Notes: a model not told the origin generated them from the sequence alone. A DNA stretch of 64,000 nucleotides from Thermoanaerobaculia bacterium (GCA_963666565.1 OY762911.1:2022797-2086796), one strand, 5' to 3'; shown: positions 6,310 through 53,559, numbered from the stretch's first letter. Program-made: numbers and translations.

Positions 6310-6349
6310 GCGATGCCCGGACATGGCACGCTGTTCGCCTCCAACTGCC

Positions 6350-10272: not shown

Positions 10273-11067
10273 TCAGCTACCCCGATCGTGTCGCTCCTGG
10301 AATCTGGCGTGGAGCTCCAAGTCGAACAGTCTGGCGGATCGGATCTCCGAGAGTGGAAGGATCACACGCATGTCCTCCAGGGACGTGCTCCGGTCTGCTC
10401 CTGGGTGGTGTCTTCGGATCTCGTTGTAGTAGCGGCCGTAGGAAGTAGTCAGCTTGAGTTCCTGCGTGTCCTTGTCGCGGTAGCCGCTGACTACTGGGAG
10501 GAGAGCTATGTCGGGCTCGGTGGCGTCCCTCTGGAAGATGCCGCTGACCGTGGCATAGCCGATGTAGGTCTTGCCGCTGTTGAGTGCGATCTCGACAGTG
10601 GTGGGGCGTTGAGCCGAGTCCTGCAGAGTCAACTCGATGAGATCGCCCCTCTCCGCCGCTGCTCTGCGGGCGCCTTCGAGATCCGTACAGCGGAGACGGC
10701 GCCGCCAGGATAGCGGCGTCTCGGTGTCCACTGCCTCGTGTTCTGCGTCTGTCTCTTTCTTCCGCCGGTTGAGTCCGTACGGAAGAGCGAACCCGCTGAG
10801 AGTTCCGATGCCGACGGCCGCCTGAACCAGGGTGAGCGGCTCCGACAAACGTAGCCAGCCCTTGAGGTCTACGCCGAGGTCCGGAACTGCATACGAGAGA
10901 GCTAGAAGCGGCAGGTATGCGATGGCCGAGAGCAGGCCCCCCAGGCAGGCCGACCGGAAGACCAGGTGGTAGCCCGACTCGCGCAGAGCGCCGTACTTCC
11001 AGCAGTTTGCCCGCGTGAGGGCCCAGTACCCGCCGAGGGCCGGCAGGAGAAGAAGCCCGAGACCCAT
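10273..11067 (-). CDS. Hypothetical membrane protein (3 predicted TM helices + cytoplasmic domain)
   Basis: ORF in a lower-GC (about 58 percent) islet; hydrophobic N-terminus; no recognisable family. Confidence 0.4.
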   Translation of the reverse strand: MGLGLLLLPALGGYWALTRANCWKYGALRESGYHLVFRSACLGGLLSAIAYLPLLALSYAVPDLGVDLKGWLRLSEPLTLVQAAVGIGTLSGFALPYGLNRRKKETDAEHEAVDTETPLSWRRRLRCTDLEGARRAAAERGDLIELTLQDSAQRPTTVEIALNSGKTYIGYATVSGIFQRDATEPDIALLPVVSGYRDKDTQELKLTTSYGRYYNEIRRHHPGADRSTSLEDMRVILPLSEIRSARLFDLELHARFQERHDRGS

Positions 11068-15744: not shown

Positions 15745-16512
15745 CTAGTCGAACGCGGGTCTGACCGGCTTCTTCGTCTCCGGCGCCCAGATTCGGATCT
15801 GGCTGAAGCGGCCGGTGTCGTCGAACGACCCGAAGCCGACGCGGCCCCAGCCGAGCGGGTCGCGGTCGGCCGAGACGGTCGGCTGCTTCTCGTCGTCGAA
15901 GTAGACCCGTAGCGAGCCGTCCTGGCGTTCGACGCGCACGCGCTTCCAGCCGCGGCCCCAGTCGACGCCTTCGTCCGGGATCGCGCCCATCGGCGTCCGG
16001 TCGGCGTTGTCGACCAGGAAGATGTTGTGGGCACGGTCGTCCGGCTCGGTGGCGAGGTGGGCGTAGTAGTAGCGGTTCGGTCCCTCGAAGCCGAAGAAGA
16101 GGCTGAGGTCGCGGTGACCGTACTCGCGGCCGGTCTGCCAGGCCTCGGCTTCGAGGACGAAGTCGGCGAGCAGGAGATCGTCGATCAGGGCGATGTTGAG
16201 CGGCGAGCGGTGTTTCGGCTTGTACTTGCTGCCGCCCTTGAGGTCGAGGTAGCCGCGCCAGTCTCCCGCGCCGTACGCCCACGCTCGCCGGTCGCTGAAC
16301 GTGAAGTCGTCGAGCGCGGAGGCCTCGGTGAAGTCCTGGGAGTAGACGAGTTCGTAGCCTTCCGGGACGTCGGACTGGGCGTGGAGGCCGCCGGCGGTGG
16401 CGACGGCAGTCAATGCGGCCAGACTCAGCCAAACCGGCGCTTTGCGCCGGATGCCGGCGAGGGCGCCGGCGCACCCGGTGGGGCGCATCGCGAGACTGCG
16501 AACCGGGCCCAT
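15745..16512 (-). CDS. Secreted DUF1080-like (3-keto-disaccharide hydrolase family) protein
   Basis: Signal peptide; domain often found next to Gfo/Idh/MocA oxidoreductases; start overlaps the upstream stop by 1 nt (alternative Met at 16488). Confidence 0.5.
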   Translation of the reverse strand: MGPVRSLAMRPTGCAGALAGIRRKAPVWLSLAALTAVATAGGLHAQSDVPEGYELVYSQDFTEASALDDFTFSDRRAWAYGAGDWRGYLDLKGGSKYKPKHRSPLNIALIDDLLLADFVLEAEAWQTGREYGHRDLSLFFGFEGPNRYYYAHLATEPDDRAHNIFLVDNADRTPMGAIPDEGVDWGRGWKRVRVERQDGSLRVYFDDEKQPTVSADRDPLGWGRVGFGSFDDTGRFSQIRIWAPETKKPVRPAFD

Positions 16513-39100: not shown

Positions 39101-39760
39101 ATCCAGTTCAACGACATCCGCACCACGCTGCAGGCGCTCTACGGAATCCTCGACCGCTGCAACTCCCTGCACACGAACGCCTTCGACGAGGCGATCACGA
39201 CCCCGACCGAGCAGTCCGTCCGGCGCGCGCTGGCGATCCAGTTGATCATCAACCGCGAGTTCGGCCTCAACCGGAGCGAGAACCCCTGGCAGGGCTCGTT
39301 CGCCCTCGACCAGTTGACCGACGCCGTGGAGGAGGCCGTCTACCTGGAGTTCGAGCGCCTGTCCGAGCGGGGCGGCGTGCTGGCGGCGATGGACACGATG
39401 TACCAGCGCTCGAAGATCCAGGACGAGAGCATGGAGTACGAGGCGAAGAAGCACGACGGCAGCCTGCCGGTGGTCGGCGTCAACACCTTCCTCGCCGAGG
39501 GGCAGGAGCACGCCGAGACGGTCGAGGCGGAACTCATCCGCTCGACCGACGAGGAGAAGCGGCAGCAGATCGAGAGTCTGGCCTCCTTCCACCGCCGGCA
39601 CGCCGGCCACTCCGAGGCGTGTCTCGAACGCCTACAGGACGTCGCGCGGCGGCGGGGCAACGTCTTCGAGGAACTGATGGAGACGGTCAAGCACTGCTCG
39701 CTCGGCCAGATCTCGGACGCGCTCTACCGCGTCGGCGGCGAGTACCGGCGCAGCATGTAG
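36155..39760 (+). CDS. icmF: Fused isobutyryl-CoA mutase IcmF (B12-binding domain + MeaB-like GTPase + mutase catalytic domain)
   Basis: N-terminal B12-binding (DGHD), central G-protein (GLTGTGGAGKSS), C-terminal methylmalonyl-CoA-mutase-like barrel. Confidence 0.85.
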   Translation: MTTPEQDPRIRLAEDASPLRFVTAASLFDGHDAAIHIMRRMIQDRGAEVIHLGHNRGVDEIVRAAVQEDADAIAVSSYQGGHIEFFRYMIDRLAEEGREDVLVFGGGGGTITPEEIAELEAYGVERIYHPDDGLKMGLPAMIDDVVERAHAKRRPAAAEPRFRARMAADPGGDIELSGLLSAIERGALDEAELRRLRKEWRLAGAGVPVVGLTGTGGAGKSSVADELLNRFLDSMPEAASEMRIALLAVDPTRRRTGGALLGDRIRMNSLRSDRAFMRSMATRRQHRATSEVLGDAIALLKASGFSMVLVETAGIGQSDSEIVDLVDLSIYVMTSDYGAASQLEKIDMLDFADVIVLNKFDRRGGRDALRDIRKQWRRNRLAFQTADEDVPVYPTIASQFQDPGVNWMFWNVCRLLQERLDLDEEAWTPEIALDEREPSAAALIPDSRSRYLAEIAEASRAAEAEAERRAAAASRAHACYRALAELDDPELPEPLAAYAESALETARGAGAESPAGAGGETGTGAAARAATPDVARAAAPSGTAPAAALGTTADETLLRLRRSYQQALAEVGAGAAALLRAWPARAAAARADRYSYPVRGREVTGDNYVTTLSHLRMPKLALPEYSDWGDLLRFLLKHNLPGAWPYTAGVYPYRRRGEEPTRMFAGEGIAERTNRRFHFVSRGQPANRLSTAFDSVTLYGSDPGERPDIWGKVGNSGVSIATVDDMKRLYSGFDLCDPATSVSMTINGPAPTILAFFMNAAIDQQVELHLRETGGLERARAEIDRLSGGDVPVYRGELPEENDGLGLALLGISGDRVVEREVYERIRADALSRVRGTVQADILKEDQAQNTCIFSTEFSLRTMGDVQQFFIDENVRNYYSASVSGYHIAEAGANPITQLAFTLANGFTIVEYYLARGMAIDDFAPNLSFFFSNGMDPEYAVIGRVARRIWARAMRERYGASARSQMLKYHIQTSGRSLHAQEIQFNDIRTTLQALYGILDRCNSLHTNAFDEAITTPTEQSVRRALAIQLIINREFGLNRSENPWQGSFALDQLTDAVEEAVYLEFERLSERGGVLAAMDTMYQRSKIQDESMEYEAKKHDGSLPVVGVNTFLAEGQEHAETVEAELIRSTDEEKRQQIESLASFHRRHAGHSEACLERLQDVARRRGNVFEELMETVKHCSLGQISDALYRVGGEYRRSM

Positions 39761-39890: not shown

Positions 39891-40877
39891 TCATCGCCTG
39901 GCCCGAAGCGGCCTGAAGAACAACTCCAGTTCGTTGACCTTCTCCTTGCGGGGCAACCTGAGTGTTCCACTGTCCAGGATACTCCCGGTGACCTCGATCG
40001 CGTAGACGCCGAACACATCGTCGTCTTCGACGTCGATGTCAACCACACTGATCAAGAGCGTGTCGCCTTCGTAGACCTTCACGAGCGTGCCGGACCGACG
40101 GAAGTTGTACCGGCCTGACTTCCTGGATCGCTCGGGTGTTCGCCCCCGGACAAGCCGCTCGACGCAGGCCAGTTCTAGCCTGTACCGTCCTGAGGCCGCG
40201 TTCAACATGGATTGCTGAATCGGTATCTCGTACCTTCGAGCCCTCTCGGCATCGGACAGCGGTGGGCTTGGCTTGCGCTTGCTGGCCTCATCCTTCGCTT
40301 CGAGCTCGGTGAGTTCCGTTTCGCGTAACGACACTTCGGCGGAGCTGAGTTGCAGCCTGCCTTCCGAGTACGCCTGCGTTTCGGACTTCAGTTGGTTCAT
40401 CCGCGTGCGCTCGCTCTCGGTTAGTGGCAGCTTCGGCTTTGACAGCTCGTCCTTCTGGACGAGTGCCGACAGCTCGGCCTGGAGGCGCTCCACCCTTGCG
40501 GCGATCTCCGCCAGACCGGTGCCGAGGTCGTCGACCAGCCCTTCCATCCTCAGGTCCTGGCGTTCCACGCGCACCTGGACGTCGGCCCCACTCAGGAAGT
40601 CCATCGCGCTTTGGCCTGAAACGCTGAGAGCGCCAACGCCCAGGCCATGGGCGCGGCTGGTTGGCAGGAGGTCGGAAGCCGACTCGCAAGAAGGCGGATC
40701 GAGCGGCACCGGCTCTTGTTGCAGAGACCAGGCTGGACCGCCAGCGAGAACTCCAAGACTGACCGCGATGAGGAACCGCGCCGGATCGACCGACCGCCAA
40801 GCTGCGACTGCCGGAGCGCCCCGGTGGCGGCTCCGCACCCGCTGTCGCGCACTCTCTTTCCCCATTCTGGCGGTCAC
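39891..40877 (-). CDS. Hypothetical coiled-coil protein with PL(S/T)(D/E)xExxR repeats and a conserved C-terminal VYEGD...FRP domain (paralog of 43199-44629)
   Basis: Lower-GC region; clear similarity to the downstream paralog in the coiled-coil, repeat and C-terminal roughly 65 aa regions. Confidence 0.5.
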   Translation of the reverse strand: MTARMGKESARQRVRSRHRGAPAVAAWRSVDPARFLIAVSLGVLAGGPAWSLQQEPVPLDPPSCESASDLLPTSRAHGLGVGALSVSGQSAMDFLSGADVQVRVERQDLRMEGLVDDLGTGLAEIAARVERLQAELSALVQKDELSKPKLPLTESERTRMNQLKSETQAYSEGRLQLSSAEVSLRETELTELEAKDEASKRKPSPPLSDAERARRYEIPIQQSMLNAASGRYRLELACVERLVRGRTPERSRKSGRYNFRRSGTLVKVYEGDTLLISVVDIDVEDDDVFGVYAIEVTGSILDSGTLRLPRKEKVNELELFFRPLRARR

Positions 40878-41035
40878 GACTCTTCTGTCTCCTCGGCCTT
40901 GAGCGGCGCCGAGATGCGGAGAACAGCGGCGCCGGTGTCGTCCGTTGTCTCAACCTCGCATCTGGTGGGCGTTGCATCGGCTGAGGCAAGGCTGATTGTC
41001 GATCCCATGGAGAGATCACTCTAACCTGAGAACGG

Positions 41036-41067
41036 GCTTGTAGTAGCGAGCAAGAACGTGTAGCTGG
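41036..41067 (-). promoter_or_regulatory. Conserved upstream motif CTTGTAGT-N14-ACGTGTAGC (copy 1)
   Basis: About 80 percent identical to 49099-49130; both lie about 150-200 bp upstream of minus-strand gene starts in the accessory cluster; coordinates approximate. Confidence 0.35.
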
Positions 41068-41158
41068 CCGATCGGCCTGGGTCGCTCAAGGGTCTCGTCC
41101 GGGATCGTGACCTTCCCCCGGCGAAGCTAGGGGAACGCGTGCGCGGGGAACGGGTCGC

Positions 41159-41503
41159 CTACTGGCACGGAAACGCCGTGATGTCCGACTTCGTGGTGGC
41201 GGTCGCGCCCTGCGGGTTGCCGTGCGTCCAGCGGCTGCCGTCGGGTCCCGTAATCCACAGGTTGAAGTCCAGGGTCGTCACCGGCGCCACGAACGCCCAG
41301 CGGTGGCCGTTGACTTGGCAACCGTCGAGCACCTTGACGAGAACCTCGGGGTTGTTGCGGCCGAAGAACCACAGAATGCCGGCCTCGCTGGACCAGGCTT
41401 CGGCCTTGACCGGGCCCGACTCGCCCTCTTGCGTGACGTAGCACATGCTGACCTCGAAGCCGCCGTCGAAGCGGAGGGCCACGGTCGTGGGCGTGCAGGT
41501 GCC
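41159..41503 (-). repeat. Dispersed about 340 bp repeat copy 1 (encodes the shared four-Cys domain)
   Basis: About 80 percent nucleotide identity to 44893-45231 and 48054-48392. Confidence 0.7.
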
Positions 41504-43060
41504 GACGGGATCCTCGGCCGGTCCGGAATCCGGGTCCGGGTCGGGGTCCGGATCCGGATCGGGCGAAGGCGTTCGCGGGCGTCTGTCGGCGAAACCGTCC
41601 TTGATCCAGTCGAACACCTTCGTGTTGGCCACGGTGCCGCGCACGTTCTCCGACGTGCGGCCGACCGCGTAGATCATCACGTCTTCGCCGGCGTGGGTCT
41701 CCAGGAACAGCGGGACCGTCGCCTCCTGCCGATATGCCGTGTGGCTGGTGCTCGTGGGAACGGCGCCGCCGCGGCCCGGCGTCCTGTCGCTGTTCGGATT
41801 GACCCGCGAACCGCTCCGGTGGCCCGGCCCGTTGGCGTAGCCCAGGATGGTGTAGGGAATGCCCCCCGAGTCGCCGCTCTCCGAGATCGTGCCGCCGCTG
41901 TCTATGTCGTGAACCGTTCCCAGGATGCCGTTGTGCGGCTGGTTGCGGAACGACGCGGGCACCGAGCGGGGGCTGTAGCGCAGGTCGCCGAGCGGCCGCA
42001 TCGGGTAGCCGGCGATCGTGAAGACGTGGCTGTGGTCCGCGGTCGCGAGGATCAGCGTCCTGTTGAGATTGACGCTCCGCTGCGCGGCGGCGATCGCTCG
42101 ATCGAACATCCGGGTGTCGGTGAAGGCGCGATAGGCGTTCCCCTCGTGGTGCGCGTGGTCGATCCGTCCCCCTTCGACCATCAGGAAGTACGGCTTTCCC
42201 GTGGCGGCGAGAATCTGGATCGCCTTCCTCGTCATCTCCTCCAGGCTCGGCTCGCCGCTGTCCCGGTCCGTTTCGTACTCCAGATGACTCGACGCGAACA
42301 GGCCGATCGCGCGGCCGGAACCGCCCAGCGAGTTGAGTCCCTGCCGGTTCCAGACGTAGCGGTAGCCCCGCTCTCGCAGTTCGTTTCGCAGATCGCGGCC
42401 GTCCGATCGGCTCCCTGGAAGTCCCTCGTCGTCCGATGCGGAAGTGGGAAGGAAGTGCCGTCGGCCGCCTCCGAAGACGACGTGGAGGCCCTGTCCGAGG
42501 CGGTCGTTGTATCCGCCGCCGCCCGGCGTCATCTGCCTGGCGATCTCGTTCTCCAGGTTGCGGTCGTTGACGTGCCCGAAAACGGCCGCCGGCGTCGCGT
42601 GGGTGACCCGCGTCGTCGTCACGATGCCCACTGCGTAGCCCATCGATATGGCCAGTTCGCCGATGTTGGTCAGCCTCGCGCTGTTGCCGTTGCCGTTGAA
42701 GTCCGCGTACTCGGTGGCCGGGCCGTAGCCGATCACGCCCGTGTTCGTGTTGACGCCGGTCATCATCGCCGACATCGTGGCGGCGCTGTCGGGGGTGATG
42801 TAGTCGGCCGACGCCGTGCGCGAGATGGCGGTGTAGGGCATGCGGTCGAGCGCCAGTTGCCCGTCGACGCCGACCGTCGCGATGCGGGTGGACGTGACGG
42901 TCGACACCCCCATGCCGTCGCCGACGAACAGGATGACGTTGTTCCTCTGCGCGGCCGCGGGCAGTGCCGCCGCCAGCAGGAGTGCGATGGTTGAGAGAGT
43001 GCTCAACGACGGGACGAGATTTCCGCGCACGCTTCCGATCTGCACGACACGACTCTTCAT
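41159..43060 (-). CDS. Alkaline phosphatase (PhoA family) fused via a (PD)n linker to a C-terminal roughly 114 aa four-cysteine domain
   Basis: Signal peptide; PhoA motifs (VGDGMG, TDSAATMSA, DHAHHEGN, ADHSH); linker PSPDPDPDPDPDPD; C-terminal domain shared with two neighbouring genes. Confidence 0.8.
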   Translation of the reverse strand: MKSRVVQIGSVRGNLVPSLSTLSTIALLLAAALPAAAQRNNVILFVGDGMGVSTVTSTRIATVGVDGQLALDRMPYTAISRTASADYITPDSAATMSAMMTGVNTNTGVIGYGPATEYADFNGNGNSARLTNIGELAISMGYAVGIVTTTRVTHATPAAVFGHVNDRNLENEIARQMTPGGGGYNDRLGQGLHVVFGGGRRHFLPTSASDDEGLPGSRSDGRDLRNELRERGYRYVWNRQGLNSLGGSGRAIGLFASSHLEYETDRDSGEPSLEEMTRKAIQILAATGKPYFLMVEGGRIDHAHHEGNAYRAFTDTRMFDRAIAAAQRSVNLNRTLILATADHSHVFTIAGYPMRPLGDLRYSPRSVPASFRNQPHNGILGTVHDIDSGGTISESGDSGGIPYTILGYANGPGHRSGSRVNPNSDRTPGRGGAVPTSTSHTAYRQEATVPLFLETHAGEDVMIYAVGRTSENVRGTVANTKVFDWIKDGFADRRPRTPSPDPDPDPDPDPDSGPAEDPVGTCTPTTVALRFDGGFEVSMCYVTQEGESGPVKAEAWSSEAGILWFFGRNNPEVLVKVLDGCQVNGHRWAFVAPVTTLDFNLWITGPDGSRWTHGNPQGATATTKSDITAFPCQ

Positions 43061-43198
43061 GGCCCAGACCCTCCTTCGTTGGTGCCCGGCCCCGGCAAGG
43101 GGCTTCATCGTCGGGATCGCGCCGCTCTTCAGCCGACCCGATGCCGACTCTTCCAACGATGGTAGTGGACTTGGCCTCAATCGGAGACTCGGCGGCCC

Positions 43199-44629
43199 CT
43201 ACCGAAGAGCGCCGGGCCGGAACTTCAACTCCACGTACTCCACGTCCGTCATGCGGGCGCGGAGAACTCCCTCTTCAAGCGTCCGACGATCGAGGACGAC
43301 CGTCGTCCTGCCGTAGAGGTCGTCGTACAAGACGTCCGCGTCCCAGACCTCGACGTCCAGTTCGTCTCCCTCGTAGACGGTGAGGATCTCGCGGTCGCCG
43401 AAGTTCACCACGGGACTCGACGTCTCCACCTTGCGCGTCCGAGCCGAGAGCAGGGCATCGAGCCGAGCCTGCTCCTCCTGCGCTTCGGCCCTCTCCTGCT
43501 GCAGGGTGCCGAGGTTCGCGGTCAGAGCCGTGAGGCGGACGGACTCCGACTCGGTCAGCGGGTCACCGGGAACGACTTCGCTTTCCGCCTTCCGCTCGGT
43601 CAGGTACTCAAGTTCGCGGCACATCGCGCACCGTGGGCAGGGATCCCGTTCGTCGAACGGGCTGCACGCCGCGCAGGCGGTCTCCGTGTAGACGGCGCAC
43701 GAGTGCGACACTTCGGCATCGAGTTCCCGCAGCCGTGCCAACTGGGTGTCGCTGAGAGGATCGCCGACAGCGACCTTGCTGGCCGTGTCCCTGGCCTCGA
43801 GTACTTCCAGTTCCGCCACGACCGCAGCTTGTTCCTCGGCCAACTCCGCCACCCTGCCGCCCAGCCAGTCCATAGCTCCCTGGATCTCGGGAACGTGCCG
43901 CCGGACCTGCACGAACGGATCGGGGTCCGAACTGGAGTCCTGGCGGTGCTTCCTGACGCGCATGACGCCGACGGAAAGGATGTACGGCGCCCGGCGATCC
44001 GGGCTGGCCACGCCCGGGCCACACGCCTTCTCTCCCTCGGTCGCGGGGTGCAGAGTCGAAGCGTGAACCCATCCGCGAGTGATGGGATCGTCGCCCAGAC
44101 GGGCCGAGGACGGTGCCGGATTCCGCGGCCCATGGTGTGCGGCATACAGCCAGCAGTTCCGCCTTTCGCGGACGTACACGAGTTGATCGTTGGAGGCTTG
44201 GAAGTCCATGGCGGCCGCGGCATGAGCCGGCGCTCGCCGGAAAGGCGCGCCCTCGCTCAGCATGCCGATGCGTAGCCATTCGTGGCGTTGTTTCAACTCC
44301 GCGGACAAGCCGCTGGTGTCCAGCACGCTTCGGCAGCCGGGCAACTCGTCCCGAGCGAACCGCAGATGGACACGCTCGCCGAGGAACTCAAGGACGCCCG
44401 AGGCTTCGCTCTCGCCCCGGGAAAGTGCTTCGGGATCGGACGACGCTTCGATCCGGAAACGTGGCGTCCGGCCTCGTCTCGTTTCCTCGCCAGCGAAGAA
44501 AAAGGAGCAGCCGAACTGCGGAAACGATGCCGAGCCGTTGCCGATCCGGAACTGCTCGTGGTAGCCCGTCAGCGAGCCGCTGGCCGGGTCGAAGGCGATC
44601 ACGGTGTCTCCGTCGTTACCCGGCACCAC
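43199..44629 (-). CDS. Hypothetical protein: N-terminal unknown domain, CxxC/CPRC zinc-ribbon-like motif, coiled coil, PL(S/T)(D/E) repeats, C-terminal VYEGD...FRP domain
   Basis: Paralog of 39891-40877; GTG start per the ORF track; no signal peptide evident. Confidence 0.5.
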   Translation of the reverse strand: MVPGNDGDTVIAFDPASGSLTGYHEQFRIGNGSASFPQFGCSFFFAGEETRRGRTPRFRIEASSDPEALSRGESEASGVLEFLGERVHLRFARDELPGCRSVLDTSGLSAELKQRHEWLRIGMLSEGAPFRRAPAHAAAAMDFQASNDQLVYVRERRNCWLYAAHHGPRNPAPSSARLGDDPITRGWVHASTLHPATEGEKACGPGVASPDRRAPYILSVGVMRVRKHRQDSSSDPDPFVQVRRHVPEIQGAMDWLGGRVAELAEEQAAVVAELEVLEARDTASKVAVGDPLSDTQLARLRELDAEVSHSCAVYTETACAACSPFDERDPCPRCAMCRELEYLTERKAESEVVPGDPLTESESVRLTALTANLGTLQQERAEAQEEQARLDALLSARTRKVETSSPVVNFGDREILTVYEGDELDVEVWDADVLYDDLYGRTTVVLDRRTLEEGVLRARMTDVEYVELKFRPGALR

Positions 44630-44766
44630 CTGCGCCCACGAGGGCGCCGCGAACGGCAGTGCCGAAGCGAAGAGGGCAAGGAACCCGCGCCAGACTGAAC
44701 GGCCGTACTCGGAGCCAGTGAACGTGCTTGACGGCCGCGGTCGGTCGTGGTGGTTGTCCGGGAGTA

Positions 44767-47340
44767 TCAGGGCACTCTCTCCCCTCGTTCCGACTGCGCC
44801 GAGATGCGAAGAACCGCGGCGCCGGTGTTGCCCGTCACATCCACTTTCCCGTCATCATCGCCGTCCCCGTCGTCGTCATCATCCTCGTTCGCGCACTGGA
44901 ACGCGTTCGTGTCGCTCCTGGTCGAGGCCGTCTGGCCTTGCCGATTGCCGTGCGTCCACCGGGTGCCGTCCGGGCCCGTTATCAAGAGATTGAACTCCAG
45001 GGTCGTGACCGGCGCCACGAACGCCCAGCGGTGTCCGTTGTGCTTGCAGCCGTCGAGCACCTTGACCAGAACTTCCGCGTTGCCCCGGTCGAAGAACCAC
45101 AGGATGCCGGACTGGCCGGATGCCCAGACGCCGGACCTGGCCTGGCCCCCGTCTCCGTCGGGCGTGCGGTAGCACATGCTGACCTTGTAGCCGCCGTCGA
45201 ACTGAAGCGCGGTCGTCGTCGGCCTGCAGCCCATGGTCGGCGGAGCTGGGCGGTCACCTTCCCGAACCACGCGGATGTCGTGACCGGAAGGCGCCAGCAC
45301 CAACTCGTAGCGGTTGCCCCGCCAGGTGAACGGCCTGTCGGGGAGGAGCGCACCAGGCCTCGTCCTGTTTCCGTCCACGTCTTCGGTGAAGTCGCACTCG
45401 TTCAGCCAGCCGTTCCGGTCGAGGTCGAGGCAGACGAAGTCCTTGTCGTCCTCGGGCAGCGCGTCAGATGGGGAGTCGAACCGTCCGTCGCCGTTCCCAT
45501 CGACAGCCAGCGCCAGCAGCCGCCCTCCCGACGGCAGCTCGACTTCGCCCCTCCAGACGCTGGACGGGCCGTACACGAGACCGTTCGACAAGTCGCCGCG
45601 CTGGGCGGACATCGTAATGGCGTAGGGCAGGACCAGCCCCGACGCATAGGGCACTTCCAGAACCGCCCCGGTTGTCCCCACAGCCCACGGACGCTCCGTG
45701 TTCCACGCCGTGAGCAGCGGCGGTCCGTCGTCGGTGAGATTTCGGTTCCTGTTCCGATCAACCCAAACGCGGATGAACCGGTTCTGGAAGTACGACGAGT
45801 AGTACCCACTCGCCGCGAACCGTTCGACATCGCAAAGCTGAGGCAGGAGCACCGTCGGGCAGGACTCGGGTCTCCTATGGCTGTCGACGAGGATCTCGAA
45901 CCGGCCTCCCGCGTCTCCAAGCTCAAGAAACTGGTAGGACGCCGAGTCTCCCCGAACTGCCGGATAGACCACGTCGGATGGCCGACTTGCATGAACCTGT
46001 ACCCGCTGAGTGATGTGGAGGCCGGTGTAGCCGCTCAGCCTGCCGTTTCGGCTCACGAAGGCGAGTCCGCGGCCGTCCGTGTTGTCGTCCATCCGGTCCC
46101 CGATGCCGTCGCCGTCCGTGTCCCGCTGCTCCCGCGGGTTCAGAGGGAAGGCGTCCGCGGCGTTACTCACGCCGTCGCCGTCGGCGTCCCGGTCCAGTGC
46201 GTCGGCGATGCCGTCACCGTCCGTATCGCGCCAGTCTCGGTGGTCCAGAGGCAGAGCGTCGATGAAGTCCGGTGCTCCGTCGCCGTCGTCGTCAAGGTCG
46301 GTCCGATTCGGCGTGCCGTCGCCGTCAGTGTCGTTCGCGGTCCCTGGGCGCGCCAGCGCGGCGCCGGACGACAGCCACTCGAAGATCTCTCTCGGGGGCG
46401 TGTCGCCAGACGAGCAGTGACCGCCGGGCGCATCCAGATCCGCGCGGGTTTCCAGGCCCAGCCAGTCTGAGTAGTACCTCGCCATCGACTCGGCGTCCTG
46501 ATGCAGGAAGTCTCCCGTCGTGGCTTCCACGAACACGCGAAAGCGCTCCCTCACGAACTGGGCGGCGAATGGGGTCCACTGAAACGAGGGCCTCCACGGT
46601 GCGTGGTGGAACGGCGGAGCGACGGCGTAGGTGTCGTGCGAGGCGTCGCCGTCGAAATCCAGCCAGAAGCACCCGCAATGCGCGTGAAAGCCACCGCCGT
46701 AGCTGCCGCCGTAGAACTCCATGAACTGCGCCAGGAAGCAAGTGCCCTGGGAGCCGCCGGCGAAGACGATTCGGTCGTGGTCGAGAGCAAGCCGCGACTT
46801 CAGGTTGTTCTGGAGCAGTTCATGGATCAGGCGCGCGTCTTCGCCTTGCCAGAACCGGGTTCCTCCCGCGCCGACTGCTTCGGGGAGCAACGTGCGTTCA
46901 CCGAATGAGATCTCCTCCGGCACCGAGTTGGGAGACGCCGGCACGATCAGCGCCAGCCCAAGATCCAGAGCCGTATCGACGTGCTGGTACCTGGGCTGCC
47001 GCAGCTCCTCGGCCGTTCCCCTGTTGTTCCCGTGGAAGAAAACGACCGCTCCGCGAGGCGTCGTCGGATCCCAGCCGCTCCTCACCCAGTACCGGTAGAG
47101 GAGAGTCCGGCCGGTGGAATCGGTGAACGAGTCATCGTGCCATACCGTGGACTGCCCTTGGACGGCGCCGGAAGCGGCGAGGAGCGCAACTGTCAGCGCC
47201 CAACGTCGTCGTCCGAGTCTCCGAGTCAGCGCCTGCCGGGAGAGTCGCATCAGTTCTGCACAGTCCGCCAGGGTCGTCCCCATCGCTTGTTCTCTCACCT
47301 TTTGCCGCCCTTCGATGGATGCACGGGATTCAACTCGCAC
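44767..47340 (-). CDS. Secreted multidomain protein: alpha/beta-hydrolase (GGSQG serine esterase), thrombospondin type-3 Ca-binding repeats, unknown middle region, shared four-Cys domain, acidic tail
   Basis: Signal peptide; VVFFHGNN...FAGGSQGTCF; DTDGDGxxD TSP3 repeats x4-5; C-terminal domain about 90 percent identical to that of 47388-48953. Confidence 0.65.
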   Translation of the reverse strand: MRVESRASIEGRQKVREQAMGTTLADCAELMRLSRQALTRRLGRRRWALTVALLAASGAVQGQSTVWHDDSFTDSTGRTLLYRYWVRSGWDPTTPRGAVVFFHGNNRGTAEELRQPRYQHVDTALDLGLALIVPASPNSVPEEISFGERTLLPEAVGAGGTRFWQGEDARLIHELLQNNLKSRLALDHDRIVFAGGSQGTCFLAQFMEFYGGSYGGGFHAHCGCFWLDFDGDASHDTYAVAPPFHHAPWRPSFQWTPFAAQFVRERFRVFVEATTGDFLHQDAESMARYYSDWLGLETRADLDAPGGHCSSGDTPPREIFEWLSSGAALARPGTANDTDGDGTPNRTDLDDDGDGAPDFIDALPLDHRDWRDTDGDGIADALDRDADGDGVSNAADAFPLNPREQRDTDGDGIGDRMDDNTDGRGLAFVSRNGRLSGYTGLHITQRVQVHASRPSDVVYPAVRGDSASYQFLELGDAGGRFEILVDSHRRPESCPTVLLPQLCDVERFAASGYYSSYFQNRFIRVWVDRNRNRNLTDDGPPLLTAWNTERPWAVGTTGAVLEVPYASGLVLPYAITMSAQRGDLSNGLVYGPSSVWRGEVELPSGGRLLALAVDGNGDGRFDSPSDALPEDDKDFVCLDLDRNGWLNECDFTEDVDGNRTRPGALLPDRPFTWRGNRYELVLAPSGHDIRVVREGDRPAPPTMGCRPTTTALQFDGGYKVSMCYRTPDGDGGQARSGVWASGQSGILWFFDRGNAEVLVKVLDGCKHNGHRWAFVAPVTTLEFNLLITGPDGTRWTHGNRQGQTASTRSDTNAFQCANEDDDDDGDGDDDGKVDVTGNTGAAVLRISAQSERGERVP
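44893..45231 (-). repeat. Dispersed about 340 bp repeat copy 2
   Basis: About 95 percent nucleotide identity to 48054-48392. Confidence 0.75.
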
Positions 47341-47387
47341 AGAGCCTCTGTCGGGTCGTCGTCATGCGGCGGCTCCCTCGCGGCCCT

Positions 47388-48953
47388 CTACCTCCTGGTC
47401 TCTACCCAGGTACCGGCCGTAACCGTTCTCCCTTCGATCCGGCAGGTGCTCGCGTCGCATGTGTACCGATAGGGACGCCTCTCGACGTAGCCGTTCCGAG
47501 AACAGCGCACGTTCGTTTTGCCACCGGAGTTGCTGAGGGAACACCTCGACAACCCGCCGTTGAGGCTCCACGAATCCGAGGGCAACGTCGTAATGACGTC
47601 ACCGACGTTGTACCTGGTTCCCGACCCGCCGCCGCCGCTGACCGTCACGCGGACGCCGCTGGAACAGTTGTTGCCGGTGTTCGATTCGCCCGACACGGAA
47701 TCCACGCAGGCGCCGTAGTAGTACGTGCCCGCGCTGGACGGCGCCGTCAGGCTGATCGACTCGGCACTGGAGCTCGAGGCGGAGAGGACACCGACCGAAT
47801 CCGTGCCGACCTGCGTGTCGGAGGTGCCGATGCTGGAGTTCGACGAGCGGTAGTAGCGCAGCGTCGTGGCGGCGGAGCGACCGTCGCCCTGGTTGCGCAC
47901 CGTGGCGCGGAGCGTGAAGCGGTCGCCCGCGCTGAGGCTGCTGTCGCTGACCGACGGGCTCGACACCACGAGGTCGGGCGCCGACGTTGGTTCGTCATCG
48001 TCCCCGTCATCATCACTGTCGTCCCCGTCATTGTCGTCATCACCATCGGTCGCGCAAGCGAACGCTCTGTTGTCGCTCTTGGTCGAAGCCGTCTGGCCTT
48101 GCCGGTTGCTGTGCGTCCACCGCTTGCCGTCCGGTCCCGTGATCCAGAGGTTGAACTCCAGGGTCGTGACCGGCGCCACGAACGCCCAGCGGTGTCCGTT
48201 GTGTGTGCAACCGTCGAGCACTTTGACCAGAACTTCCGCGTTGCCCCGGTCGAAGAACCACAGGATGCCGGACTGGCCGGATGCCCAGACGCCGGACTTC
48301 GCCTGGCCCACGTCCCCAGCGGGCGTGCGGTAGCACATGCTGACGTCGTAGCCGCCGTCGAAGCGGAGCGCCGTTGTCGTGGGCCTGCAGCCTGCGGTTG
48401 GCGGGGGGTCGGGATCGGGATCCGGCGGCTGACTTTCTTCGGACGTTGCGCGCACTTCGCATCCGGTGGGCGTTGCTCCAGAGACCGTCCCGGTCATGTG
48501 GAAGGTCCTGGTCTGGTTGGCCTCCATCCTCCCGAGGAGCTGATTGCCTATCTGGCGCCGCCCCGGCTCGATATAGCCCCGTACCCTGACGTTCCTGACG
48601 GACCGTTGGGCCGTCACGCTCCCGCCGATGGTCGCGTTCCAGGTGCTGCCGGCGGTCTGGTCAGCCCTGCAGGTCGTGACGCGGCCGGTCAAGGCCGGGC
48701 CGGACGCTGCTGCATGGACGGATTCGGTGTCACCGGCGGCGGCATTGACGAACACCGTGCTCGGTGCGGCGTGCAGAGGCACTTCCCAGGCAACAAGTTC
48801 CCGGTCCTGCTGAGCGGCCGATGGCGCCGAAACGGCCATGGTCAACGCCATCAGCGTCAGCAGGACGGCGGGTCGAGGAACGCGAACGCCTCCGGCTCCG
48901 TTCCCTCCGCGGGTCTGGCGCTTCTGGCTCGGGCCGATCATTGTGTTGTTCAT
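47388..48953 (-). CDS. Secreted multidomain protein: unknown N-domain, PDPDPD linker, shared four-Cys domain, poly-acidic linker, CARDB-like domain, Cys-containing C-terminal domain
   Basis: Signal peptide; CARDB-like region LVVSSPSVSDSSLSAGDRFTLRATVRNQGDG; shared domain GCRPTTTALRFDGGYDVSMCY...AFAC. Confidence 0.6.
   Translation of the reverse strand: MNNTMIGPSQKRQTRGGNGAGGVRVPRPAVLLTLMALTMAVSAPSAAQQDRELVAWEVPLHAAPSTVFVNAAAGDTESVHAAASGPALTGRVTTCRADQTAGSTWNATIGGSVTAQRSVRNVRVRGYIEPGRRQIGNQLLGRMEANQTRTFHMTGTVSGATPTGCEVRATSEESQPPDPDPDPPPTAGCRPTTTALRFDGGYDVSMCYRTPAGDVGQAKSGVWASGQSGILWFFDRGNAEVLVKVLDGCTHNGHRWAFVAPVTTLEFNLWITGPDGKRWTHSNRQGQTASTKSDNRAFACATDGDDDNDGDDSDDDGDDDEPTSAPDLVVSSPSVSDSSLSAGDRFTLRATVRNQGDGRSAATTLRYYRSSNSSIGTSDTQVGTDSVGVLSASSSSAESISLTAPSSAGTYYYGACVDSVSGESNTGNNCSSGVRVTVSGGGGSGTRYNVGDVITTLPSDSWSLNGGLSRCSLSNSGGKTNVRCSRNGYVERRPYRYTCDASTCRIEGRTVTAGTWVETRR
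48054..48392 (-). repeat. Dispersed about 340 bp repeat copy 3
   Basis: See copies 1 and 2. Confidence 0.75.
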
Positions 48954-49098
48954 GGTGACCGTGTCTCCTTGGTCCGGTTGGCCGCCAGGTCTCCTGCCCT
49001 TCCGCCGTCAACACCCGGCGATTTGCCGCGACGGACGCGCGCTTCGCGTTTACCGAAGACGCGCTCTTCATCATGCTCGTCAGCCTACGACGGACGCG

Positions 49099-49130
49099 GC
49101 TTGTAGTGCCGAGGAGAAACGTGTAGCCGG
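49099..49130 (-). promoter_or_regulatory. Conserved upstream motif CTTGTAGT-N14-ACGTGTAGC (copy 2)
   Basis: Upstream of the first gene of the minus-strand cluster (start 48953); see copy 1. Confidence 0.35.
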
Positions 49131-49151
49131 TCGCGGTGGCGCGGCAGCCGG

Positions 49152-51845
49152 TCAGGAGTCGCCGGGGATCAGGCCCATGTCCCAGGCCCGCCGGACGGCC
49201 TCCGCCCGATTGCGGGTGCCGAGCTTGGCGAAGATGCTCCGCAGGTTGTACCTCACGCCATGCGTCGTCAGACCCAGTTCGGCGGCGATCTCCTTGTCGC
49301 GGCGACCCGGCAACCGGTGCAGCACTTCAAGTTCGCGCTCGCTGAGCGACGGCGCCGAACCATCGTCCGCGTCGCACATCGCCAGGAGCGAACGGGCGGC
49401 TGGCCGGTGGGAGGCGTCCGCGCCGAGCTCGAGGTACATCCGCAACGCGTCCGCGCAGGTTGCCTGGTCCCGCACCAGGGGCCAGGCGTAGGGCGACTCG
49501 ACGAACAGCCTTAGGTACTCCGTCAGATGCCGCAGGCTCGCCTGGGTGTCGCCGGCCTGCTGTTCCAGCGAGACGGACAGCGCCAGGGCGCGCATCTCGA
49601 CGGTGCGGAGGCCCAGCTCGGCCGCAACCGAGCGTAGCCGGCGCAGCAACGAGCGCCCTTCCTCCCACCGTCGGCCCGCGATCGACAATCGGGCGCGAGC
49701 TTCCGAAACGGCCTCCATTTCCCTCCAGCTCTGAGCCGTCAGATCCACGCAGTCCTCAGGCTCCTCCGGCAACGCCTCCCGCCGCCAGGCGCGCTCGGCT
49801 TCCGTCGTGCGGCCGGCGATCGCCAGCACCGATATCCGGAGCGCGACGATCAGTCTCAGGAAGGCGGTCAATCCGGCCCTGCGTGAACGAAGCACCAGCT
49901 TGTCTGCCACGGCGAGAGCCTCTTCGACCTGTCCGGACCCGAGTCTGGCGCCGATCAACACGTTGCTGGCCGTTGCGAAGTACGAGAAGGGCACGCCGTG
50001 GCGCGTCAACACGCTCAGTACGCCGGGCGGGTTGGCGGCTGCCGAAGCCGGGTTGCATTCCAGGGCGATTTCGTGCCGCACGAGATCGCAGCTCGTGGTC
50101 GCCGTGGGATCGAGCATGAAGCACTTCCTGGCAATCCGCCGTGCTCTGCGGCAGTGTGCCCGGGCGTCCCGTGGCCGGCCCCTCACGAAGTCGATCTGGC
50201 CATGCAGGATTCCTCCGTACAGCGCGATGTAGTCGGTACCGGTGGACTCGAGCGCCGCGGAGAGCGTGTCGAGAGCGTCGGCGAACTCTCCCTTCAGAAA
50301 GTGGAGGATGCACAGCCCGTACTCGAACCCGCCGCGCTTGGCCGGGGCCAGATCCGCATCCGCCGTCAGCCGGGCGATGTCGCGAAGCAGGGCCTCCGAC
50401 GAGTCCGACCCGACGGGAGATATCCCGTACAGGGCCAGGCAGAAGCGAGCGGTGAGATGCTCCAGGCGGTAGCGGAAGTCGTCCTCGTCGTCGCTGGCGG
50501 GGACAGGACGGGGACACGTCCGGTAGAGATCCCGAGCTTGGTCGCCACGTCCGGTAAGCGCCAGCGTGACGCATCTGAGGAGCTTGAGTCGCGGCGATTC
50601 GGCGACGACAGCCTCGCTCAACAGGCGGTTCGCTTGCTGCAACTCCGGGACGCCGTTGCGCATCCACAAGCGTACCCCGCCCGCCTGTTCGGCAATCCGA
50701 CCGGCGAGGAACGGATCGCGCCCCTCGATCGCGTGGCGCATGGCCGCTATCGTCTCGCGGCGTTTCGCCAGGGCGGCGGCGATGCGCCGATGGATGGCGG
50801 CGAAGCGTTCCGGGTCTTCGCGAAGCCGCCTGGCGGCGCAGTGCTCTCGCACCAGCGGATGCAGCCGCCAGCGCCGGGTTTCGCCGTCGCTCAGCGGCTC
50901 AAGCAGCCCGGTCAGCGCGGCCATCGACTCGAAGCGGCGCATCGAGTCGTTTCGTTGCAGGACTTCGTCCAACAGCGCCGCGTCGGTCCAGTCGAGCAGG
51001 GACATGTCCAGAACGAAGTCCCGGTCGCCGCGCCCGAGAGGCGCGAACAGGCGGGACTCGATCCAGTTTCCGAGGAAGCCATGCCCACTGTCGCGGTCGT
51101 CGTGCGCTTCGTGTTGCATACCGTTGCGGGCAATGCGCAGTGCGACCGGCCATCCGGCTGAACGGTCGATCTCTCTCGCCAGGGCTCGGCGGGAAAGGCG
51201 GAGACCGAAGAACCTGGCCACCTCCGCTCGGGAGAACCTCAGGTCTTCGGTTTCCACGGCCTCCGCGTGGCCCGCCAGCAGGGGACTGGCCACATCGAGG
51301 CCGTCCGGGATCTCCCGGCCCGCCAAAGCCAGGTGCAGATTGGAGGGGCCGCGTTGCAGGAGCAACGTCAGGAGCGGGACGGAGGCGGGATTCAGACGCT
51401 CCAGCTCGTCGAACGCAATGACGAAGGGTCTTCCGAGGGACTCGATTCCGTGCAGAACGGTGCCGATCCGGCTCGCCGGTCCAGCGCGCGTTTCCCTCAC
51501 GGGCGGCACGTCGCCCAGGTTCAACCCGGCCTCGGCGCAGGCGAAGGCGATGTAAACGTCGAGTACGCCGGGCTCGTCGTTCTCGTCCAGCGAAATCCAG
51601 GCCGTGGCGACCCCGTCCCGGCGGACTCGGCGGCAGCACTCCGCCATCAGGGTCGTCTTCCCGAAACCGCCGGAGGCCCTCAGCACCGAGAGCTTGCGGC
51701 GCGTGGGCAGCGCCCGCTTCTCGAGTTCCGGCCGGCTGAGGTAGCCGGCCACCCTGTCCGGGATCGCGACCTTCCGCCGCAGCAGCCAAGGGAACGCGCG
51801 CGCGGGGAAGGACTCCGCGGGCATTCCTCGCGACGCTCCGGTCAT
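49152..51845 (-). CDS. Large ATP-binding LuxR-family transcriptional regulator (LAL / MalT-like)
   Basis: N-terminal P-loop (GGFGKTTL), long helical/TPR-like middle, C-terminal LuxR HTH (LSERELEVLHRLPGRRDKEIAAELGLTTHGVRYNLRSIFAKLG). Confidence 0.8.
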   Translation of the reverse strand: MTGASRGMPAESFPARAFPWLLRRKVAIPDRVAGYLSRPELEKRALPTRRKLSVLRASGGFGKTTLMAECCRRVRRDGVATAWISLDENDEPGVLDVYIAFACAEAGLNLGDVPPVRETRAGPASRIGTVLHGIESLGRPFVIAFDELERLNPASVPLLTLLLQRGPSNLHLALAGREIPDGLDVASPLLAGHAEAVETEDLRFSRAEVARFFGLRLSRRALAREIDRSAGWPVALRIARNGMQHEAHDDRDSGHGFLGNWIESRLFAPLGRGDRDFVLDMSLLDWTDAALLDEVLQRNDSMRRFESMAALTGLLEPLSDGETRRWRLHPLVREHCAARRLREDPERFAAIHRRIAAALAKRRETIAAMRHAIEGRDPFLAGRIAEQAGGVRLWMRNGVPELQQANRLLSEAVVAESPRLKLLRCVTLALTGRGDQARDLYRTCPRPVPASDDEDDFRYRLEHLTARFCLALYGISPVGSDSSEALLRDIARLTADADLAPAKRGGFEYGLCILHFLKGEFADALDTLSAALESTGTDYIALYGGILHGQIDFVRGRPRDARAHCRRARRIARKCFMLDPTATTSCDLVRHEIALECNPASAAANPPGVLSVLTRHGVPFSYFATASNVLIGARLGSGQVEEALAVADKLVLRSRRAGLTAFLRLIVALRISVLAIAGRTTEAERAWRREALPEEPEDCVDLTAQSWREMEAVSEARARLSIAGRRWEEGRSLLRRLRSVAAELGLRTVEMRALALSVSLEQQAGDTQASLRHLTEYLRLFVESPYAWPLVRDQATCADALRMYLELGADASHRPAARSLLAMCDADDGSAPSLSERELEVLHRLPGRRDKEIAAELGLTTHGVRYNLRSIFAKLGTRNRAEAVRRAWDMGLIPGDS

Positions 51846-51888: not shown

Positions 51889-53559
51889 ATGAGCGACTGG
51901 CATCACGCGGACATTCTCGAAGCGATCGCCCGGCACCAGCCGGAGGCGCCGGCGCAAGCCTTCGTCGATCCCCTGGGCGGCGAACCGGCGCGCCGCTACT
52001 CGCAGGCCGAGCTGCACCGTCGCGCGAACGGCGTCGCGGCGACGCTGATCGCGCGCGGCGCGAAGCGCCAGGACAAGGTTGCACAGTACCTCTACAACGT
52101 GCCGGAGTACCTGGAGTCCGTCCTCGCCTGCTTCAAGGCGTCGCTGGTGCCGGTGAACACGAACTACCGCTACGTGGAGAGCGAGCTCCTCTACCTGTGG
52201 GACAACGCCGACGTCGTGGCGGTTGTCTTCCACGGCTGCTTCGCCTCGCGGATCGCGGACCTGCGGGCGAAGATGCCGGCGATCCACACTTGGCTGTGGG
52301 TCGACGACGGCTCGGGTCCCTGCCCCGAGTGGGCGATCCCCTACGAGCAGGCGGCCGCCGCGGCGTCCGGCGAGCCCGGCGACTCGCTGGCCTTCGAGGC
52401 GCCTTGGCCGCGCAGCGGCGACGATCTGTGGCTGCTCTACACCGGCGGCACGACCGGCATGCCGAAGGGCGTCATGTGGCGGCTCGACGACCTCTGGCTG
52501 CTCGGCAACGAAGGCCGGCCCGAGCCGTTCGACCTCTCGGGCGGCGTCGAGGGCCTCGTGCCCCAGTTCGACGAACTCCTCATGCGGCGCGTCTCGCTTC
52601 CCGCCTGCCCGCTGATGCACGGCACCGGCTTCCTCACCGCGCTCGGCGGCATGTTGAACGGCGGCACGGTGATCACCCTGGCCAACCGCCGCTTCGACGC
52701 GGTCGCGACCCTCGAGGCGATCACCGGCGAGAAGATCAACGGGATGGCGATCGTCGGCGACGCGTTCGCCAGGCCGATGGTGCGGGCGCTGGAGGCGGAA
52801 CCGGACCGCTTCGATCTCTCCAGCCTGGAGGCCGTCGTCTCCTCCGGCGCGATGTGGAGCGCCGAGGTCAAGCGGGCCTTCCTGCGGTTCTGCCCGCCGG
52901 AGACGATCCTGACGGACAGCCTCGGGTCGTCCGAGTCGATCGGCATGGGCCGTTCGGACTCGACCGCCGGCGAGGAGAGCGAAACGGCCTCCTTCGTGCT
53001 CGGCGACAACGCCTGCGTCATCGACGACGACGGCAACAAGGTCGAACCGGGCTCGGGCGTGCTCGGCCGCATCGCCGTGACCGGTCACATCCCGCTCGGC
53101 TACTACAAGGACCCCGAGAAGACCGCGGCCATATTCACCGAAGTCGACGGCGTCCGCTACTCGATGGCGGGCGACTACGCCACCGTCGAGGCGGACGGCT
53201 CCCTCAAGCTCTACGGCCGCGGCTCCGTGTGCATCAACAGCGGCGGCGAGAAGATCTTCCCCGAGGAGGTCGAGGAAGTGCTGAAGACCCACCCTTCGGT
53301 CCGCGACGCGGTGTGCGTCGGCGTGCCGGACGAGCGCTTCGGTCAGGCGGTGACGGCGGTCGTCGAGCTGGACGACGCCGCCCGCTTCAGCGAGCCGGAC
53401 GTCATCGGCTGGGTCAAGCGGGAACTGGCGTCCTACAAGGCGCCCAAGCGCGTCCTGGTGCGGGACAGCGTGGGCCGGGCCGCGAACGGCAAGGCCGACT
53501 ACAACGGCCTGCGCGAGTGGGCGGTCGGCGAGCTCGCCGCGGGCGAGGCGGCGCCGTGA
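51889..53559 (+). CDS. Acyl-CoA synthetase (AMP-dependent synthetase/ligase)
   Basis: LYTGGTTGMPKGV AMP-binding motif; C-terminal GEKI and K..PK motifs. Confidence 0.85.
   Translation: MSDWHHADILEAIARHQPEAPAQAFVDPLGGEPARRYSQAELHRRANGVAATLIARGAKRQDKVAQYLYNVPEYLESVLACFKASLVPVNTNYRYVESELLYLWDNADVVAVVFHGCFASRIADLRAKMPAIHTWLWVDDGSGPCPEWAIPYEQAAAAASGEPGDSLAFEAPWPRSGDDLWLLYTGGTTGMPKGVMWRLDDLWLLGNEGRPEPFDLSGGVEGLVPQFDELLMRRVSLPACPLMHGTGFLTALGGMLNGGTVITLANRRFDAVATLEAITGEKINGMAIVGDAFARPMVRALEAEPDRFDLSSLEAVVSSGAMWSAEVKRAFLRFCPPETILTDSLGSSESIGMGRSDSTAGEESETASFVLGDNACVIDDDGNKVEPGSGVLGRIAVTGHIPLGYYKDPEKTAAIFTEVDGVRYSMAGDYATVEADGSLKLYGRGSVCINSGGEKIFPEEVEEVLKTHPSVRDAVCVGVPDERFGQAVTAVVELDDAARFSEPDVIGWVKRELASYKAPKRVLVRDSVGRAANGKADYNGLREWAVGELAAGEAAP

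Follow-up and report, generated by a model that had tools for sequence, protein, structure and literature searches.

A variable slot for secreted proteins in a Thermoanaerobaculia genome, and the unannotated ~113 aa module that its proteins share

Genes at the locus

The window analysed here is a 64,000-nucleotide stretch from the genome of a Thermoanaerobaculia bacterium (GCA_963666565.1 OY762911.1:2022797-2086796). Six co-directional open reading frames (ORFs), all on the minus strand and separated by short gaps, occupy its positions 39891-51845 in the transcription order G6-G5-G4-G3 (partner 2)-G2 (PhoA)-G1 (partner 1). Three of their products, G2, G4 and G5, are secreted proteins that share a domain of ~113 aa, here called the module, which is our main subject. 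An original prediction, made from the sequence alone, had described five co-directional minus-strand genes, in the order enzyme-enzyme-partner-enzyme-partner, next to an 897 aa MalT-like LuxR regulator, and had read them as one co-regulated unit. The ORF set defined for this interval, scanned against Pfam, NCBIfam and PDB sequences, bore out the genes, their order (G5-G4-partner-PhoA-partner) and the regulator with its AAA_16, TPR_MalT and GerE domains. We call 'slot' the interval between the two flanking genes, one acyl-CoA synthetase-like and the other of MeaB/methylmalonyl-CoA mutase type. The features are listed below; the signal-peptide-like N-termini of G2, G4 and G5 were judged by eye from the translations.

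51889-53559, plus strand: left slot boundary, AMP-binding acyl-CoA synthetase-like gene (88-95% identity in 25 loci; Pfam AMP-binding on the orthologue in locus L073)
49152-51845, minus strand: G6, 897 aa MalT/LAL-type regulator with STAND NTPase, MalT-like tetratricopeptide repeats (TPR) and LuxR/GerE helix-turn-helix (HTH)
47388-48953, minus strand: G5, 521 aa secreted protein with signal-peptide-like N-terminus, an unassigned N-region, the module, CARDB and a Cys-containing C-terminal piece of ~86 aa
48048-48401, minus strand: internal module copy of G5 (profile hidden Markov model (HMM) match 4.8e-57; AlphaFold2 model pLDDT 93.4)
47658-47981, minus strand: CARDB domain of G5, aa 325-432 (Pfam PF07705, 2.6e-13)
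44767-47340, minus strand: G4, 857 aa secreted protein with a possible alpha/beta-hydrolase N-region, TSP3 repeats, an unassigned middle region, the module and an Asp-rich tail
46060-46314, minus strand: TSP3-type calcium-binding repeats of G4, aa 343-427 (Pfam TSP_3, NCBIfam MtsC, PDB COMP 3fby)
44884-45240, minus strand: module copy of G4, near the C-terminus (HMM match 3.4e-56)
43199-44629, minus strand: G3 ('partner 2'), 476 aa, an unassigned N-region followed by a C2-like beta-sandwich that is split by a helical hairpin of ~150 aa, in which a Cys cluster lies
41159-43180, minus strand: G2, 673 aa secreted PhoA-type alkaline phosphatase (aa 80-526) with a Pro-Asp linker and the module at its C-terminus
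41162-41512, minus strand: module copy of G2, at the extreme C-terminus (HMM match 1.6e-51)
39891-40877, minus strand: G1 ('partner 1'), 328 aa, a signal-peptide or anchor-like N-terminus and a split C2-like sandwich with helical insertion
37034-39760 (start approximate), plus strand: right slot boundary, MeaB/methylmalonyl-CoA-mutase-type fusion gene (85-95% identity in 25 loci; Pfam MeaB and MM_CoA_mutase on the L073 orthologue)

The predicted PhoA fusion and CARDB protein were both recovered. G2 belongs to the PhoA family (PF00245, E=1.1e-101, 341 bits against a cut-off of 24.4), its aa 80-526 covering profile positions 2-417 of 423, and the CARDB match of G5 scored 50.5 bits against a cut-off of 22.7. 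For G4, described as an esterase with TSP3 repeats, the second half of that description has the better support. Its repeats are visible as DxDxDG-type motifs and matched COMP (4.2e-10) and MtsC (4.6e-09), with the Pfam model itself (PF02412) at 6e-05 and 23.1 bits, under its gathering score of 25. Its N-region had no Pfam match and no PDB sequence match; the esterase label, drawn from a GGSQG motif and a sub-threshold NCBIfam match to the polyhydroxyalkanoate (PHA) depolymerase model e_dPHAscl_type1 (E=0.0055, 16 bits against a cut-off of 150), is unproven. Orthologues of G4 occur in L001, L002 and L007, with 75-82% identity outside the module.

G6 has the architecture of the LAL/MalT regulators, namely a STAND NTPase (AAA_16, 1.6e-06), MalT-type TPR (TPR_MalT, 1.6e-10) and a GerE HTH (7.9e-10, above cut-off), to which the L073 orthologue adds WHD_MalT. 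Its match to the NCBIfam MalT model is extensive (1e-42 over aa 22-425), yet at 146 bits it lies far under the equivalog cut-off of 537, and G6 is therefore a family member by architecture and not a MalT orthologue. Orthologues with 65-92% identity were found in eight loci, each directly upstream of a G5-like gene. G5 itself resembles the largest cluster of module-bearing ORFs in the related loci (43 members; the clustering did not include the window). Its C-terminal ~86 aa (aa 435-521; 47388-47648) contain five Cys, are 63-90% conserved in eight related loci and had no Pfam match; in L001, L002, L008 and L016 a piece of this type directly follows the module, with no CARDB.

A large family of extracellular modules

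The module occurs three times in the window and no more (tblastn and HMM), the copies being 68-88% identical to one another. As the original prediction had held, it belongs to no known family: Pfam, NCBIfam and PHROGs returned no match, even at E<=10 with seven divergent members as queries, and a profile search of PDB sequences gave chance matches only. Its fold is confidently predicted to be a beta-sandwich for which no close solved relative was found. A full HMMER search over 1.84 billion cluster representatives found 9,219 carriers at E<=1e-3, 7,678 at E<=1e-10 and 2,121 at E<=1e-30, reaching 6,814 aa in length and in many cases holding two copies; where the sources name them at all, they are 'hypothetical protein' or 'PKD domain-containing protein' from metagenome-assembled genomes (MAGs) of Acidobacteriota or 'Holophagales'. 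One genome per GTDB species yielded 403 coding stretches with the module. The best 71 loci, from 35 assemblies, are the basis of the module-locus counts below (74 loci with L072-L074 added). All 71 come from Acidobacteriota MAGs (Ca. Multivorans, Thermoanaerobaculia, 'Holophagales' and one Vicinamibacteraceae), and they hold up to six copies per 20 kb and tandem arrays of four to five genes. Outside the window, its source genome probably has more genes for proteins of this kind, of which P0029 (1,046 aa, with the module at aa 47-171 and a second copy) would be one. Database entries for the module often begin at an internal Met ('MCY…'), a sign that the gene calls may be truncated.

Conservation was read from 147 aligned modules, 144 from the loci and the three of the window. 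The domain had been described as a four-Cys domain, which holds for Cys3 and Cys63, both invariant; Cys21 is present in 81% and Cys114 in 90%, and in a divergent subfamily these two lie elsewhere, Cys21 being replaced by a Cys ~8 residues past the first ('C-x8-C...LCL..GRF') and the last Cys being moved by 1-3 residues. This pattern probably reflects two disulfides, an N-terminal one with a variable partner and one between Cys63 and the C-terminal Cys. Further residues that are invariant or nearly so are F47, F48, N52, E54, K58, W70, T77, N97, D108 and F112.

Usage was counted in the 133 complete module-bearing ORFs of the fetched loci. The module lies within 15 residues of the C-terminus in 104 of them (78%), just past the signal peptide in 12 and internally, as in G5, in 17; two or more copies occur in 19, and the module also stands free, in proteins of 142-146 aa. 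Grouping by architecture gave 29 clusters of ORFs, in which the module is fused to PhoA, to matrixin-like M10 with fn3, to reprolysin-like (M12) domains, to leishmanolysin (M8) with leucine-rich repeats (LRR), to Spondin_N, to cadherin with fn3, Big_2 and CARDB, to PKD with SWM repeats, to LRR with PKD and to Calx-beta with DUF3472. The module behaves, in short, as a portable extracellular accessory unit.

Such a distribution invites comparison with the type A/B C-terminal domains (CTDs) of the type IX secretion system (T9SS) of Bacteroidota, which are also beta-sandwiches of similar size found mostly at the extreme C-terminus of diverse secreted proteins. The module could have a like role as a C-terminal sorting or anchoring signal, recognised and perhaps cleaved or surface-linked by dedicated machinery, and its position, its very diverse secreted cargo and its size and fold, which resemble those of known C-terminal sorting domains, all fit that possibility. 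We nevertheless regard it as unlikely. A sorting signal does not readily account for the 29 ORFs with an N-terminal or internal module, nor for the multiple copies and the free-standing forms, and the conserved Cys point to a stable extracellular domain. No model of T9SS or other sorting domains in NCBIfam or Pfam matched at E<=0.1, and no gene for cognate machinery was seen beside the module in the 71 loci, where no systematic search for one was made. The hosts in these 71 loci are, moreover, Acidobacteriota, in which T9SS is not known to be established.

The module also appears to move, or to be overwritten, independently of the proteins that carry it. In the window, the G4 module is 88% identical to the G5 copy, whereas its identity to the corresponding modules in the G4 orthologues of L001 and L002 is no more than 73-77%, and neighbouring copies are similarly alike within L001 (88%) and L007 (90%). 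The PhoA protein of L073 has a catalytic part 93% identical to that of the window and a module only 70% identical; the PhoA modules of L001 and L002 are 95% identical to the G2 copy. Since paralogous copies are more alike than orthologous ones, and since identity to L073 PhoA is far lower in the module than in the catalytic part, this pattern of identities indicates gene conversion or module replacement between neighbouring genes. In G2, G5 and many relatives, the stretch just before the module is a linker of Pro-Asp repeats (PDPDPDPD…; 41513-41590 and 48402-48440 in the window), and the simple repeats in the DNA of these linkers could be break points for module exchange.

Homogenisation within a genome is also what would preserve a shared interaction specificity, if the module were a protein-protein docking unit, cohesin/dockerin-like or self-associating, that builds a surface complex or matrix. 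The many different enzymes and adhesin-like proteins per genome with nearly the same module, as well as its tandem and free-standing forms, could be seen in that light. However, a shared non-protein ligand would lead one to expect homogenisation equally; we recognised no distinct family of receptor-type counterparts, and the module has no likeness in sequence or fold to cohesin or dockerin. We accordingly give docking only a small chance, below that of a sorting signal.

The slot in related genomes and the two C2-like proteins

The slot was compared in 23 loci that have both flanks, the window included; each flank is 85-95% identical in 25 loci. Its length ranges from 2.0 to 12.1 kb and its content from one to six genes, the window being the largest. 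A PhoA-domain gene is present in all 23, with a catalytic part 80-93% identical across slots (mostly 87-93%), and in the smallest form, found in 10 loci, it stands alone. The LuxR regulator occurs in five of the 23 and a partner in two. The genes also differ in order. L001, L002, L008 and L009 (whose left flank lies outside the fetched stretch) have PhoA-domain, LuxR and G5-like genes, followed in L001 and L002 by the G4 orthologue; L073 has LuxR, G5-like, partner 2 and PhoA-domain; and the window has LuxR, G5, G4, partner 2, PhoA-domain and partner 1. Besides PhoA with its module, the sole stable pairing is LuxR directly upstream of a G5-like gene, seen in all eight loci with an intact regulator. 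Conserved synteny of domain, partner and regulator, for which the original prediction proposed a search, was recovered for the regulator and its G5-like neighbour and not for the partner. Of the two findings that were together to refute the original prediction, the analysis gave one and not the other: the neighbourhood as a whole is not conserved, but the domain matches no characterised family.

In two loci PhoA is split into two reading frames (L046:8511-9919 and L059:8526-9940), which accounts for database 'proteins' such as P0003 that start inside PhoA, and the LuxR gene is in fragments in L007:3-862 and L065:10327-10707. These are either pseudogenes or frameshifts of long-read assembly. 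The closest relatives are Ca. Multivorans and Thermoanaerobaculia MAGs; judging by their isolate names (RHO1, COS3, SB06xx and Plut_, for example), they may come from sponges and a coral. MAG sets from Rhopaloeides, Coscinoderma and Ircinia exist, and MAGs from sponges show an enrichment of adhesion domains of the cadherin and fn3 types (PMC8163846). A literature search on Ca. Multivorans itself returned nothing.

Base composition had been cited as a sign of horizontal origin, the cluster being placed at 58-62% GC in surroundings of 70%. The five-gene block is indeed poorer in GC than the rest of the window, at 66.4% versus 70.9%, but within it ~60% is reached only in a few 300-bp windows around G1. 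Two further minima of ~60%, as low as that at G1, lie at ~6200-6650 and ~10300-10650. Codon usage departs from that of the flanking genes, as measured by GC content at third codon positions (GC3): 0.757 in G1, 0.81 in G3 and G4, 0.83 in G5, 0.84 in G6 and 0.88 in G2, against 0.95 in both flanking genes. Recent transfer of the whole block does not agree with a PhoA-domain gene at this position in 23 of 23 loci. For the partner genes, with the lowest GC3 and a restriction to this lineage, horizontal transfer is plausible.

G1 and G3 are paralogues, as predicted (30% identity over 261 aa, E=5e-17, BLASTP). Among 5.8 billion proteins, G3 matched only itself (P0023), P0024 (84% identity), P0025 (49%) and P0026 (44%), and none of the fetched loci has an orthologue of G1. 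P0024 is encoded in the L073 version of the slot. P0025 sits in an island (L072:15793-19389) with VapBC, fragments of an Eco57I-type methylase, an HTH_17 excisionase-like gene, an integrase and a set of genes for cyclic-oligonucleotide-based antiphage signalling (CBASS; patatin, SMODS cyclase and E2-CBASS), and P0026 comes after a 1,376 aa astacin protease and an LRR giant. Because of the CBASS, restriction-modification and integrase setting of P0025, a defence or phage origin of the family was considered; we rejected it, as PADLOC gave no match, PHROG matches were sub-significant (E>=0.003) and the setting of P0026 is not one of defence.

The predicted fold of the partners is a C2-like sandwich split after strand 2 by a helical hairpin of ~150 aa. 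Five Asp are invariant in the family (231, 237, 430, 432 and 437), within the motifs 'S-x-PD-x-FV-x-V' and 'V-x-D-x-D-x(3-4)-DD-x-x-G', which we take to lie where C2 domains have their Ca2+-binding loops. In this they resemble the eukaryotic C2 domains of synaptotagmin, E-Syt, cPLA2 and ferlins, which are Ca2+-dependent membrane binders; they differ in the split sandwich and in being bacterial proteins with signal-peptide-like N-termini, and the confidence of the model is moderate. A profile of the family found among PDB sequences only E-Syt2 and 3w56, at E~1.4, and G1 had no match to the Pfam C2 model. P0025 has a clear signal peptide and G1 a hydrophobic N-terminal segment. On these models and motifs, G1 and G3 are probably exported, split C2-like proteins that bind in a Ca2+-dependent manner.

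Some details of the two proteins deserve record. Their helical insertion contains an internal two-fold repeat, 'SK(V)xxGDPL(S/T)xxExxRLxxL' (aa ~283-300 and ~348-365 in G3; ~145-160 and ~198-212 in G1), and between the repeats the G3 subfamily alone has a Cys cluster (CxxC…CPxCxxC), which may bind metal. Directly upstream of the first canonical G3 start, and in frame with it, is a hydrophobic, signal-peptide-like segment, RSVWRGFLALFASALPFAAPSWAQ (44630-44770, minus strand), the counterpart of the signal peptide of P0025, for which no ATG, GTG or TTG is available; the L073 orthologue is alike. Translation may begin at a non-canonical codon (CTG or ATA near 44765-44770), the start codon may have been lost, or the sequence may contain an error.

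The arrangement in the window had suggested that these proteins are paired partners of the enzymes (as scaffold, chaperone or inhibitor) and that the LAL regulator governs all five genes as a single unit for phosphate/ester scavenging or adhesion. Several features speak for this: the genes are co-directional with short gaps, partner 2 lies directly upstream and partner 1 directly downstream of the PhoA-domain gene, the adjacency of partner 2 and PhoA recurs in L073, L003 has a shortened C2-like ORF behind a gene with the module, and the regulator is kept upstream of G5-like genes. Beyond these loci, however, the association breaks down. Homologues of the partners are missing from 70 of the 71 module loci (tblastn, and a partner HMM on six-frame ORFs) and from 21 of the 23 slots, and an HMM scan found no copy of the module in L072 or L074, the P0025 and P0026 loci both being without it. 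Thousands of module-bearing proteins stand against four partner-family proteins, and the variable content of the slot, with PhoA-domain its one constant, LuxR in five and PhoA-domain alone in 10, is not that of a conserved co-regulated unit. We thus consider an enzyme-partner operon very improbable, and co-occurrence of partner and module as a general rule was rejected over all 74 loci. The one locus of the 71 with a partner-type ORF is L003, where the truncated frame (~15944-16342), directly after a gene with two module copies, covers partner HMM positions 212-304 and 443-476, so that little of the helical insertion is present; it may represent a minimal version of the family, or else what a deletion has left. 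We read G1 and G3 not as cognate partners of the module but as proteins that entered the slot in one lineage.

What the module may do

The explanation that we favour, and hold to be probable, is that two conserved housekeeping genes here enclose a fast-changing secretome slot, whose shared module acts as a binding or anchoring unit and whose partners are independent of it. The fixed resident is a secreted PhoA-type alkaline phosphatase with a C-terminal all-beta module of ~113 aa, around which lineages have gained or lost further module-bearing secreted proteins, here the CARDB protein and the putative hydrolase with TSP3 repeats. The MalT/LuxR regulator travels with the CARDB-type gene, and we infer regulation by it. 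The two secreted C2-like proteins with a coiled-coil insertion are present in this lineage only and would be independent, probably Ca2+-dependent binders rather than cognate partners of the enzymes. By binding a ligand, which would be a polymer belonging to the host matrix or to the bacterium's own surface, the module would tether phosphatases, proteases and adhesin-like proteins close to the cell.

Like carbohydrate-binding modules (CBMs) and lectin-like beta-sandwiches, the module is an all-beta unit of ~110 aa that sits at the termini of unrelated hydrolases and has tandem and free-standing forms. It differs in matching no Pfam model, those of the CBM families included, and in being fused mostly to phosphatases, metalloproteases and adhesin repeats rather than to glycoside hydrolases; membership of a known CBM or lectin family was not found. 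That the module binds a common extracellular ligand, and thereby retains enzymes and adhesins at the cell or the host matrix, seems to us at least an even prospect and perhaps somewhat better.

Several observations weigh against parts of this explanation. The C-terminal bias of the module would suit a sorting or anchoring tag as well. The partner model is of moderate quality, with a mean pLDDT of 62 (60-95 in the C2/helical half), and the match of G3 to the Pfam C2 model (PF00168; E=0.036) reached 14.7 bits where the cut-off is 22. Full-length partner genes adjoin module-bearing genes in two of the four loci that have them, as does the truncated copy in L003, which leaves some chance of a functional link. 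A scan for consensus promoters and terminators was uninformative, with no promoter and one terminator-like site, inside G3, fewer than in shuffled sequences.

The cluster itself, then, is accessory DNA of an ordinary kind, and the hypothesis of paired partners does not stand; the split C2-like proteins, though unusual, are a minor find, and the module is a genuine, large family without annotation. As neither the enzyme-partner system nor the single co-regulated operon holds, effort is better directed at the module than at the gene cluster. The locus remains of use as a clean natural case of slot growth by module-tagged secreted proteins, with recombination at the level of domains.

More tentatively, and with the odds rather against so broad a statement, the observations might be joined into one. 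The module would be a new extracellular fold family, hugely expanded and homogenised by cassette exchange in sponge- and coral-associated Acidobacteriota, and phosphatases, metalloproteases and eukaryote-like adhesion proteins would have it as their common 'address tag', which would hold them to a ligand of the host matrix or cell surface and make the module a lineage-specific symbiosis factor; with the split C2-like proteins, bacteria would have a new class of secreted, Ca2+-dependent binders of membrane or matrix. Whether or not so much is true, a domain in more than 9,000 protein clusters that is invisible to Pfam, NCBIfam and PDB is a considerable gap in annotation, as it sits on the main secreted enzyme and adhesion classes of Acidobacteriota that are known mainly from sponge and coral metagenomes. 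A name and a ligand for the module would allow thousands of 'hypothetical' proteins to be re-annotated, and would offer a handle on the means by which these uncultured bacteria keep hold of exo-enzymes such as phosphatases and proteases, and on their attachment within animal tissue.

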